A stretch of 50,143 bases of DNA from sequence record OV696612; one strand, written 5' to 3'. The translations under genes were made by a program, and so were the position numbers. The DNA is from Escherichia phage Perceval. Positions 22,393-26,227 of the stretch are shown here, piece after piece (positions within the stretch are counted from its first letter, which is position 1; each line of letters opens with the position of its first letter). The notes under the pieces are model-generated. The model saw nothing but the letters and a program-made list of their open reading frames with translations, ran no database searches and was not told the DNA's origin.

Positions 22393-23250
22393 CTAATTGG
22401 GTGATAACAGATCCTGTGTATGGGAGTTTCCCTTTTTGCGTGCGTTGATGCTGGTAACGGCAAACGTCATGATGAACAAAACCGCGAATAAGACGACAAT
22501 CGTCGGAGCTGGTGCGCTGTCGATAAAAAAGGACAACCAGACACCAGTCATTGACACTATTACCGATATGCCAGTCGCCAGTAGGAGCGCAATATGAAAG
22601 CGTTGTGTCAGGAGTACCGCAATGGCGCCAGGCGCAATGAGCAGAGAAATGGAGAGAATGATACCTACCGCTTTCAGCGTCGCCACAATGGTCAGAGAGA
22701 CCATGCACAGCAGCCCATAATGCAGCCATCTCGTATGCAAACCGCTTACCTGCGCCTGTTGATAATCAAAGCTGAACAGCAAAAAATCCCGCCATTTTAC
22801 GCTAATAACAAGTGTAACCAGCCCGGCAATAATCATCGTCTGGATTATATCGCCGATGGTTATCCCGAGCATGTCGCCGAAAAGAATATGGTCAAGATGT
22901 ACGTCTGGTTTGACTGCAATATACAAGATCAGACCTGCGGCAAACATGCCAGAAAAAACAATCCCCATCACTGTATCTTGCTTGATTCGGCTGTTGTCTT
23001 TCAGGTATCCCGTCGCCACCGCGCAGAATACTCCGGCGACGAATGCCCCTGTAGCCAAAGGTAACCCCAGAATCCAGGCAAGCACGATGCCAGGAAAAAC
23101 CGCATGACTCATCGCGTCACCCATCAGTGCCCAACCTTTCAGGACCAGAAAGACCGACAGCAGCGCACAGGGTATGGAAACTACCAGTGAAATCAGCAGT
23201 GCGTGACTCATAAAGGTGAACTGCAGTGGCTCCAGTAATAATGCCATCAT
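22393..23250 (-). CDS. sitD: Mn/Fe ABC transporter permease SitD
   Basis: 285 aa polytopic membrane protein of the ABC-3 permease family; last gene of a four-gene operon with overlapping stop/start junctions. Confidence 0.85.
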   Translation of the reverse strand: MMALLLEPLQFTFMSHALLISLVVSIPCALLSVFLVLKGWALMGDAMSHAVFPGIVLAWILGLPLATGAFVAGVFCAVATGYLKDNSRIKQDTVMGIVFSGMFAAGLILYIAVKPDVHLDHILFGDMLGITIGDIIQTMIIAGLVTLVISVKWRDFLLFSFDYQQAQVSGLHTRWLHYGLLCMVSLTIVATLKAVGIILSISLLIAPGAIAVLLTQRFHIALLLATGISVIVSMTGVWLSFFIDSAPAPTIVVLFAVLFIMTFAVTSINARKKGNSHTQDLLSPN

Positions 23251-24104
23251 GAGCGATCCTCCAGCGCCTTATGCGCACGCCGACGATTTGCCAAAAGCCC
23301 ATGGGTGGGCGCAAAGACAAATGCTAAAAGAAACAGCAGTGTCTGCGCCACCACGATGATTCCACCTGTCGCGCCGTCCAGAAAGTAACTGACCCACGCG
23401 CCGAGGAAACTGGTTACACTGCCAATAGTTACAGCAATCATGAGCAGGCGGGGAAAACGATCGGTTAACAACCATGCTGTTGCACCGGGAGTCACCACCA
23501 GACAGATCACCAGAAAGGCACCAACCGTTTGCAGCGCCGCAACGGTCGAAACCGACAGCAGGGTGAAGAAGAGGAGTTTTAATCTGCCCGGATGCAATCC
23601 AATAGCACGGGCGTGATTCTCGTCGAAAAAGGTCACCATAAGATCTTTCCATTTGAAAAAAAGCACGATGATCGAGAGAATGCCAATGATAGTGAGTTGC
23701 AGGATATCCGCCGGATCGATTGCCAGAATATTGCCCAGGACGATGGTCTGAATGTTCACAGATGTCGGGTTCAATGACACCATAAACAGCCCCAGGCCAA
23801 AAAAGGACGAGAAGATCAGACCGATGATGGCATCTTCTTTTAAGCGGGTGCGTTGGTTAAGAAACAGCATGCTGCCCGCAGCCAGTCCGCCGGAAAAGAA
23901 GGCTCCCAGAGAAAACGGAAGCCCCAGCATATATGCCCCCGCAACACCCGGGACAATAGAGTGCGACAACGCATCGCCAATCAGCGACCAGCCTTTTAGC
24001 ATCAGATAGCATGACAGGAAAGCGCAGAGACCGCCGACCATCGCCGAGACCCACATCGCATTGAGCATATATTCATAGCTGAAGGGTTCCAGTAGCACGT
24101 TCAT
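23247..24104 (-). CDS. sitC: Mn/Fe ABC transporter permease SitC
   Basis: 285 aa ABC-3 family permease; start overlaps sitB stop. Confidence 0.85.
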
Positions 24105-24928
24105 CTTTCTTCCCTCTGCACCGCTGACGGTCGATGAGCCACAAAAGGGCGTTCATCGTCAGTAATAATGCTTTCTTCCGAGCCGTTAAGTGTGACATGG
24201 CGCAGTACGCCGCTAAAAGCCAGCTCTAGGTTCTCGGCTGTAAAAGTGGTGTCTGTCGGCCCGCTTGCTAGGACGGTGCCTTTGACCATGACCGTATAAT
24301 CGCAAAATGTCGTGACGGATCCGAGATTGTGTGTTGAGACAAGCATCGTTTTGCCTTCCGCGCGTAACTCCCTCAACAGGCTGATGATTTTGGCTTCGGT
24401 TTTCACATCAACGCCAGTAAAAGGTTCATCCAGCAGGATCACATCACCCTGCTGTGCAATCGCTCTCGCCAGAAAGACGCGTTTCTTTTGTCCACCGGAA
24501 AGCTCGCCGATTTGTCGATGGCGAAAATTCACCATATCGACACGTTCCAGCGCATCGGTGACAATTTGACGATCCCTCTTTTTGGCGATACGCAACATAC
24601 CCATATGCCCATAGCGGCCCATCATCACCACATCTTCCACCAGTACAGGAAATGACCAGTCAACATCTTCTGACTGAGGGACGTAGGCAACCAGGTTTTT
24701 CTGTAACGCCTGTCGCGTGGGAATACCCAGAACAGATATCTTTCCGCTGGTCAGACGCACAAATCCCATAATCGCTTTAAACAACGTCGATTTTCCGGAA
24801 CCGTTTACCCCAACCAGAGCGGCAATAGATCCACTTGGTACTGTGAAGGATGCATCGCGCAGTGCTGTGTGCCCGTTACGCCAGGTGACAGTAACATCAT
24901 TAACGACAATGCCTGCAGATTGCATCAT
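24101..24928 (-). CDS. sitB: Mn/Fe ABC transporter ATP-binding protein SitB
   Basis: 275 aa; Walker [13 protein letters not shown] signature LSGGQKKR, Walker [12 protein letters not shown]. Confidence 0.9.
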
Positions 24929-25842
24929 TATTTCTCCCTTTTCCCAGCTTTAATTCCCTGTACCAGCGTACTGGTAGTAACCTTAAGAAGGTCGATATAC
25001 GTCGGTACCGGGCCGTTTTCTGTGCTCAGGGAATCGACATAGAGCACACCGCCGTAGTGTGCGCCGGTTTCACGCGCAACCTGACGCGCTGGTTTATCGG
25101 AAATCGTACTCTCGCTAAAGACTGCCGGGATATGATTTTTCTTAACTATATCAACAACCTTACGTACCTGCTGCGGTGTTCCTTGTTGATCGGCATTAAT
25201 CGGCCACAGATAAAGCTCTTTTAGCCCCAAATCGCGTGCGAGATAAGAAAAAGCCCCTTCACTGGTGACCATCCATCGCTGATTCTCAGGGAGTTCCGTA
25301 ATCTGCTTACGCAGGGGGGCAAGGGTTTGGGTAATCTTGGCTTTATAAGTATCGGCATTGCGTTGGTAGGTTTGTGCATTTGCCGGATCGTATTTTATCA
25401 ACGCATCACGAATATTATCGACGTAAATCAGAGCATTATCTGGCGACATCCATGCATGGGGGTTAGGTTTGCCCTCATAGGGTCCTTCGGTGATCCCTAC
25501 AGGCGTCACACCCGAAGAGACAATTACTTCTGGAACCCCATTGAGATGCTGGTAAAAGCGTTGGAACCACAATTCCAGATTCATACCATTGGCGAGAATC
25601 AGTTGTGCCCCCTGCGCACGTTTAATATCGCCAGGGGTAGGCTGATACTCATGAATTTCTGCACCAGGCTTGGTTATGGATGAGACTTCTGCAGCATCTC
25701 CCGCCACGTTTTTGGCCATATCCGCGATGATGGTAAATGTTGTAATGACCTTGAATTTTTCAGTTGCACTTGCCTGAAATGCGATCGAGCAGGTGAGTGC
25801 GAGCCCCCCCAAGAGCATGGTTACTTTTTTTATCGAGTGCAT
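24928..25842 (-). CDS. sitA: periplasmic Mn/Fe-binding protein SitA (cluster A-I substrate-binding protein)
   Basis: 304 aa with signal peptide [26 protein letters not shown]; TroA/ZnuA-like fold sequence; first gene of the operon. Confidence 0.88.
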
Positions 25843-25874
25843 AATTTAGTACCTATAGTGAGCAAAATTAGAAC

Positions 25875-25896
25875 AAACATAGCAACGGCTATGTTT
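25875..25896 (-). promoter_or_regulatory. MntR-type operator palindrome upstream of sitA
   Basis: Perfect inverted repeat AAACATAGC-AACG-GCTATGTTT about 35 bp upstream of the sitA start, matching the E. coli MntR box pattern as recalled. Confidence 0.65.
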
Positions 25897-25915
25897 TATA
25901 GCACAGCCTATACAA

Positions 25916-25935
25916 AATGAAAATGATTATCATTA
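25916..25935 (-). promoter_or_regulatory. Fur box-like site upstream of sitA
   Basis: AATGAAAATGATTATCATTA resembles the Fur consensus GATAATGATAATCATTATC. Confidence 0.6.
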
Positions 25936-26227
25936 GCAGCTTTGAGGCCCAAAACAGGGATTAGGTTGTTTCCTGCTGGCGACGCGTTATTGAGGAAAAA
26001 AGTAAGGCAGCTAGTAGGCTTTGAAATAACGTTTTGCGGTTGGCTGATGCAATTTCGAGAGTGCATGTATTGAATGATTTCTAGCCGTTACTGATTTTCG
26101 TATTTTTTGTATGGGAGGATTTGCACCTCCCCCCACCGAGCCTCCATGACTTTACTCCACTGTCTCTAGGGCTGCTGTGTGCCAGGAGCGGAAGCAGGGG
26201 GGCCAGAGACTCCTTAAAAGTTGATAG

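Follow-up and report, generated by a model that had tools for sequence, protein, structure and literature searches.

The SitABCD system encoded on Salmonella pathogenicity island 1 (SPI-1) of Salmonella Typhimurium is the founding member of the Sit systems. It is reported to be repressed by both MntR and Fur and to prefer Mn2+ (review PMC3852070). Transport of manganese and iron has been reported for the Sit homologues of avian pathogenic Escherichia coli (APEC), among them that of strain chi7122, and for those of Shigella and Salmonella (review PMC3852070), and virulence roles of the APEC, Shigella and Salmonella systems have been shown by others. YfeABCD of Yersinia pestis has the same architecture; Yersinia lacks the MntR-type control known from other enterobacteria (review PMC3852070), and Zn2+ is a further, lower-affinity substrate of both YfeA and Salmonella Sit (PMC3852070; PMC5505154). 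A "PAI sit" has been described from several locations on the chromosomes of Shigella and E. coli (review PMC7545054), prophage 042p3 carries sitABCD as cargo at its tail end (Chaudhuri et al. 2010, PMC2808357), and 70% of Lambda phages from infant stool carry sitABCD, in each case together with a Fur box (Mathieu et al. 2020, PMC6969025). Here we analyse sitABCD in the genome of Escherichia phage Perceval (sequence record OV696612), whose 50,143 nucleotides are referred to as the window. It is the same element as the Perceval of E. coli LF82, the window corresponding to its excised form, and sitABCD was described there as a moron that the lysogen expresses (Misson et al. 2023, PMC9928086). The presence of sitABCD in phage Perceval is therefore already published, and is a correct and ordinary finding. 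Our analysis adds small points to it: an MntR-type operator beside the known Fur box, the limits of the cassette (about 22366-26030) and estimates of selection.

Sequence comparison identifies sitABCD of Perceval as a predicted cluster A-I ATP-binding cassette (ABC) importer for Mn2+/Fe2+ of the SitABCD/YfeABCD family (Table 1). An earlier note, made from the letters alone, had described a complete sitABCD manganese/iron operon of four collinear minus-strand genes with overlapping junctions, and both the list of open reading frames (ORFs) and re-translation bear this out. The order is binding protein, ATPase, permease, permease; all four genes start with ATG, have lengths divisible by 3 and contain no internal stops, and re-translation revealed neither frameshifts nor truncations. 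The junctions overlap by 1 nt (TAATG), 4 nt (ATGA) and 4 nt (ATGA), the pattern expected of translationally coupled genes. The sit DNA is 100% identical to the E. coli LF82 genes that RefSeq names SitA, SitB, SitC and SitD. SitA, which the note had taken for a periplasmic metal-binding protein with a signal peptide, has a Sec-type signal sequence followed by TEKF and matches the Pfam family ZnuA (PF01297, E 9e-86). It has no lipobox because Thr precedes Cys, and the crystallised Salmonella SitA chain starts at EKF, at a position that aligns with residue 28 of Perceval SitA. In SitB, which matches ABC_tran, the Walker A (GVNGSGKS, 40-47), signature (LSGGQ, 143-147) and Walker B (VILLDE, 163-168) motifs noticed earlier are all present, together with an H-loop (THN, 199-201). 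The two permeases, SitC and SitD, match ABC-3 (PF00950, E 6e-83 and 2e-76, respectively) and are strongly hydrophobic along their full length, with multiple hydrophobic segments.

The metal assignment is supported by both the ATPase and the binding protein. SitB matches the NCBIfam equivalog NF011630 (manganese/iron ABC transporter ATP-binding protein) over its full length (1-274 of 274), scoring 592.8 bits against a cut-off of 393. The solved structures closest to SitA are Y. pestis YfeA, cyanobacterial MntC and the Salmonella fragment 5jg7 ("Fur regulated Salmonella iron transporter"). Identity to YfeA is 64.6% across 274 residues, free of gaps (E 4e-125), and identity to the Salmonella fragment is 81.6% over SitA residues 28-185. 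SitA H64, H129, E195 and D270 align with His76, His141, Glu207 and Asp282 of YfeA, which make up its canonical site 1 (PMC5505154); all four ligands are conserved. The best match was not to a transporter family with a different substrate, the outcome that the earlier note had named as refuting it. Perceval differs from these relatives in where its copy resides: Salmonella SitABCD is a clearly diverged allele on a pathogenicity island and YfeABCD is chromosomal, whereas the sit genes of Perceval are phage-borne.

Two operator-like sequences lie upstream of sitA. The first, GCTAATGATAATCATTTTC, is the sole site in the window within 3 mismatches of the 19-nt Fur consensus, with 0.01 such sites expected by chance, and phage sit operons were already known to have a Fur box upstream (Mathieu et al. 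2020, PMC6969025). The second, nearer to the gene, is the perfect palindrome AAACATAGC-N4-GCTATGTTT, which we assigned to the MntR type by direct comparison with E. coli K-12, where the palindrome AAACATAGCaaagGCTATGTTT directly upstream of mntH has the same two half-sites and likewise adjoins a Fur-like box. The mntH palindrome is the established MntR operator (Patzer and Hantke 2001, as cited in PMC3852070). Both sites are conserved in the sit alleles of the plasmid pAPEC-O1-ColBM and of the Salmonella-labelled phage SPF_0923, whereas neighbouring bases of the promoter region diverge. The MntR palindrome is conserved in SPF_0923 and differs by 1 base, within a half-site, in pAPEC-O1-ColBM, whose Fur box differs from that of Perceval at several bases. 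The upper limit that the earlier note had drawn for the locus, 25940, lies beyond sitA and spans these operators (25875-25937). We infer that Fur and MntR bind at the sites upstream of sitA; because the promoter region carries both a Fur box and an MntR operator, the iron and manganese sensors of the host would control sit in the lysogen. A search of the whole window (1-50143, both strands) against Rfam returned no family at gathering score, and hence no structured RNA or riboswitch.

The orientation of sit and its upstream operators agree with transcription from a repressed prophage, independent of phage circuits. In the published transcriptome of the Perceval lysogen grown in lysogeny broth (LB), sitA was expressed at 13x, sitB at 10x, sitD at 5x and sitC at 4x the prophage background (PMC9928086). 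We consider it highly probable that the sit genes encode a working ABC importer for Mn2+/Fe2+, that the prophage expresses them subject to Fur and MntR of the host, and that the lysogen benefits from the importer in metal limitation and oxidative stress. SitA would be exported via its Sec signal peptide and would bind divalent metal in the periplasm through H64, H129, E195 and D270; loaded SitA would then dock on the SitC/SitD permease pair, and ATP hydrolysis by SitB would drive import of the metal. Transcription of the operon would start in a promoter region of its own and run opposite to the phage late operon, with derepression under shortage of Fe or Mn. In this way the lysogen would acquire an additional high-affinity Mn/Fe route with the associated peroxide tolerance; the phage's own cycle has no need of sit. 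Lysogens of Perceval would be expected to gain fitness from the operon.

Several observations weigh against this interpretation. The reported expression of sit in the Perceval lysogen is modest and was measured in LB, and in the literature we found no paper comparing isogenic lysogens with and without sit for Perceval. A simple scan of 25843-25960 found no consensus sigma-70 promoter, and the sitA promoter is therefore placed from operator position only. Among the four genes sitD is the least constrained, with a ratio of non-synonymous to synonymous substitution rates (dN/dS) of 0.30-0.56 and 10-15 amino-acid differences against the plasmid and SPF_0923 alleles. At the other end of the operon, no canonical terminator was found in 22301-22393, between the end of the late operon and sitD; the nearest thing to a terminator after sitD is a modest hairpin at 22322-22344 (z about -2), which lies outside the sit cassette. 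Because a canonical terminator is missing from this interval, Q-antiterminated late transcription would enter the sit operon antisense after induction.

Close relatives of this locus are common. At least 9 deposited lambda-like phages share the 4.5 kb around sit at 100% identity and phage 21 does so at 99.7%, and most of this region is present in at least 26 phage records. Of 5426 complete genomes of E. coli, 2384 gave a match and 2337 contained most of the operon, with 1683 chromosomal and 1061 plasmid places. The two phage ORFs next to sitD in Perceval also adjoin it in 1033 complete E. coli genomes, and in 739 sitA is linked to the same ORF of 256 residues. The cassettes of the infant-gut Lambda phages (among others Lambda_2E9, 1H12, ev245, ev207 and 4A7) and of phage 21 (OL657228) are 99.6-100% identical to that of Perceval and are likewise placed after the tail fibre genes. 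The backbones of these phages are mosaic relative to Perceval, with the left arm 96-97% identical and the right arm covered to 76% at most. No record in the phage collection covers the window end to end: the closest is ev207 for the left arm (96.9%) and 4A7 for the right arm (99.1% over 76% of the query).

Comparison across these settings delimits a cassette that consists of the four genes with 188 nt upstream and 27 nt downstream. The plasmid pAPEC-O1-ColBM, of the ColV/ColBM type, carries the same four genes within the same limits (22366-26030) at 96.6% nucleotide identity; its flanks are a Tn3-family remnant and IS1, as opposed to the phage genes of Perceval. In phage SPF_0923, which has a different tail-fibre backbone, homology extends over 22373-26027 at 97.5%. 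The ends of the cassette thus agree within 10 bp on both sides between lambdoid backbones, the Salmonella-labelled phage and ColV/ColBM plasmids, and the same break points recur across E. coli genomes. The right-hand break of 4A7-type phages falls at 25979, and homology does not reach the 256-residue ORF. Phages 2G7b, Tritos and HannyBb match the query only at 22007-22377 and are without the cassette, and in many E. coli prophages the flank is present without sitD. Because related lambdoid phages share the flank to about 22377 and lack the cassette, the sit operon is dispensable for the phage. We entertained two further ideas, each with only a slim chance of being right. One, suggested by the near-identical ends in three settings, is that the cassette is transferred as one unit through a dedicated capture mechanism not yet recognised, and not through chance recombination events. 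The other, separate from it and suggested by the missing terminator where the late operon meets sitD, is that convergent late read-through silences sit after induction.

We next consider the possibility that sit is inert passenger DNA, brought in by aberrant excision or recombination, decaying and of no use to the lysogen. Its position would suit such an origin, as sit adjoins attP, where imprecise excision puts host DNA, and the roughly 500 nt between the cassette and the 256-residue ORF (26031-26528) contain no convincing gene; in the matching stretch the annotators of phage 21 recorded just an unconvincing IS3-like trace. However, a phage-family ORF (phrog_20520) stands between sit and attP, and the operon does not look like decaying DNA. 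All of its four ORFs are intact and encode proteins identical to RefSeq entries, and dN/dS against the plasmid and other-phage alleles is well under 1 for sitA, sitB and sitC (0.04-0.12; sitC 0.06-0.08). Together with the sitD values, these estimates indicate that the sit genes are under purifying selection, which is weakest on sitD. The operators are also conserved across alleles in which neighbouring promoter-region bases are not, sit is transcribed in the lysogen (PMC9928086), and the cassette has been kept in the phages and E. coli genomes counted above (at least 26 and 2337 of 5426, respectively). We regard an inert passenger as very unlikely, and reject a pseudogene or decay reading on the intact ORFs, dN/dS and published expression.

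A role of sit as auxiliary metabolic genes that act mainly in the lytic cycle, where they would provide metal for phage replication, and not in the lysogen, is if anything still less probable. Auxiliary metabolic genes are one class of phage accessory genes (Mathieu et al., PMC6969025), and no terminator protects sit from late transcription. But sit is antiparallel to the late operon, such that late read-through would be antisense, it has putative host repressor operators of its own, and it is expressed from the uninduced prophage (PMC9928086); the time needed to assemble a four-component membrane transporter would also fit a short lytic cycle poorly. There is equally little to recommend a zinc transporter of the Znu/Azt/Adc type: although the Pfam family of SitA bears the name ZnuA, the AztA, AztB and AztC models match at E 1e-54 to 5e-58, and Zn2+ is a lower-affinity substrate of YfeA and Salmonella Sit, the curated zinc equivalogs all score under their cut-offs (ZnuA 66.3 against 268, ZnuB 78.4 against 284, AztC 196.8 against 350, AztB 185.9 against 280 and AztA 193.4 against 220), whereas SitB exceeds that of the Mn/Fe ATPase, the metal ligands are the His/His/Glu/Asp set of YfeA site 1, and the predicted upstream operators are of the Fur and MntR types. 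For the close APEC, Shigella and Salmonella homologues a preference for Mn2+ or Fe2+ over Zn2+ has been reported (PMC3852070). We reject the zinc reading on the curated cut-offs and the ligand set. The Mn2+/Fe2+ importer of the lysogen described above is accordingly the interpretation that we retain.

The window is a complete cos-to-cos temperate lambdoid phage genome. It begins with GGGCGGCGACCTCG and finishes with ACAGGTTACG, the lambda cos ends, and structural, integration, recombination, immunity, replication and lysis genes are all present. BLAST comparison with the LF82 chromosome gave 100.000% identity for 27760-50143 and 1-2734 and 99.98% for 2373-27974, and the few mismatches fall in the icd overlap at attR. 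The window is the excised form of prophage Perceval, which resides at icd in E. coli LF82 (NC_011993.1, about 1173046-1223240). Perceval makes plaques and virions (PMC9928086). As the earlier note had proposed for a cos-to-cos phage, sit is carried as cargo in the b region of a lambda-type genome, between the side tail fibre gene and attP/int, and the note's reading of it as a lysogenic-conversion locus is supported. Two small ORFs close the late operon and converge on sitD. These and the 256-residue ORF on the other side of the cassette have no Pfam matches and only function-unknown PHROGs matches, and a PADLOC search of the three gave a single sub-threshold match (E 0.0034, the 256-residue ORF); a defence or other assigned role is unsupported.

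The attP overlap region is common to attL and attR of LF82. It translates as the C-terminus of Icd, with the icd stop at 27923, and includes a terminator hairpin at 27947-27969. Because chromosomal-type single-nucleotide polymorphisms begin at about 27769 in attR and continue from there onwards, the crossover is placed at the 5' edge of the overlap. Copies of TTCCCCAAAA, which are probably Int arm-type sites, flank the overlap, with one at 27631-27640 and three at 27991-28025 (27991, 28003 and 28016). An icd copy, a hairpin and repeats in this arrangement are the phage 21/e14 style of attP.

Elsewhere in the window, two genes of 168 and 340 residues (33309-34859, minus strand) lie directly downstream of a cI-like repressor gene (34982-35710), in the position of lambda rexAB. 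They have 35-40% G+C, no Pfam or PADLOC match and only function-unknown PHROGs matches, and are candidates for an exclusion or defence module. The gene LF82_152 of Perceval, listed as a 'transmembrane protein', was expressed at 81x the prophage background in the lysogen and lies two locus tags from the CI repressor, LF82_154 (PMC9928086). The remaining accessory genes are listed in Table 1, named as RefSeq annotates the identical DNA of LF82 and, in two cases, after Pfam.

Table 1 Features of the sit locus and its surroundings in the phage Perceval window.
Feature	Position	Strand	Description
sit cassette	22366-26030	-	3.67 kb; common to lambdoid phages of different backbones and ColV/ColBM-type plasmids
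sitA	24928-25842	-	304 residues; predicted periplasmic Mn2+/Fe2+ substrate-binding protein with Sec signal peptide; intact ORF
sitB	24101-24928	-	275 residues; ABC ATPase
sitC	23247-24104	-	285 residues; inner-membrane permease
sitD	22393-23250	-	285 residues; inner-membrane permease; intact
Fur-box-like operator GCTAATGATAATCATTTTC	25919-25937	-	77-95 nt upstream of the sitA ATG; 17/19 positions of the Fur consensus
MntR-type operator AAACATAGC-N4-GCTATGTTT	25875-25896	strand-neutral	Perfect palindrome; 33-54 nt upstream of the sitA ATG
Side tail fibre gene	19654-21720	+	Left context; phage 21 annotation of a 99.6% identical stretch
Small phage ORF	21717-21995	+	PHROGs phrog_1361, function-unknown
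Small phage ORF	22008-22301	+	PHROGs phrog_1443, function-unknown
256-residue ORF	26529-27299	+	About 39% G+C; sole match phrog_20520 (function-unknown); between the sit cassette and attP
attP overlap region	27759-27974	+	Phage copy of the last ~165 bp of icd and terminator hairpin
Tyrosine integrase, phage 21/icd type	28037-29179	-	ORF of 380 residues; integrase in phage 21 and LF82 annotation
Ail/Lom outer-membrane protein	18996-19595		Accessory gene
EmrE SMR efflux pump	38663-38995		Accessory gene
Large serine recombinase YbcK	39251-40777		Accessory gene
BD-FAE-type alpha/beta hydrolase	41127-42170		Accessory gene
OmpC/NmpC-like porin	44680-45762		Accessory gene
Iss/Bor serum-resistance lipoprotein	48280-48573		Accessory gene
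TonB-family fragment	49054-49380		Accessory gene

With sitABCD on board, a temperate phage would spread a countermeasure to nutritional immunity, in the form of manganese and iron uptake that would be governed by Fur and MntR of the host.

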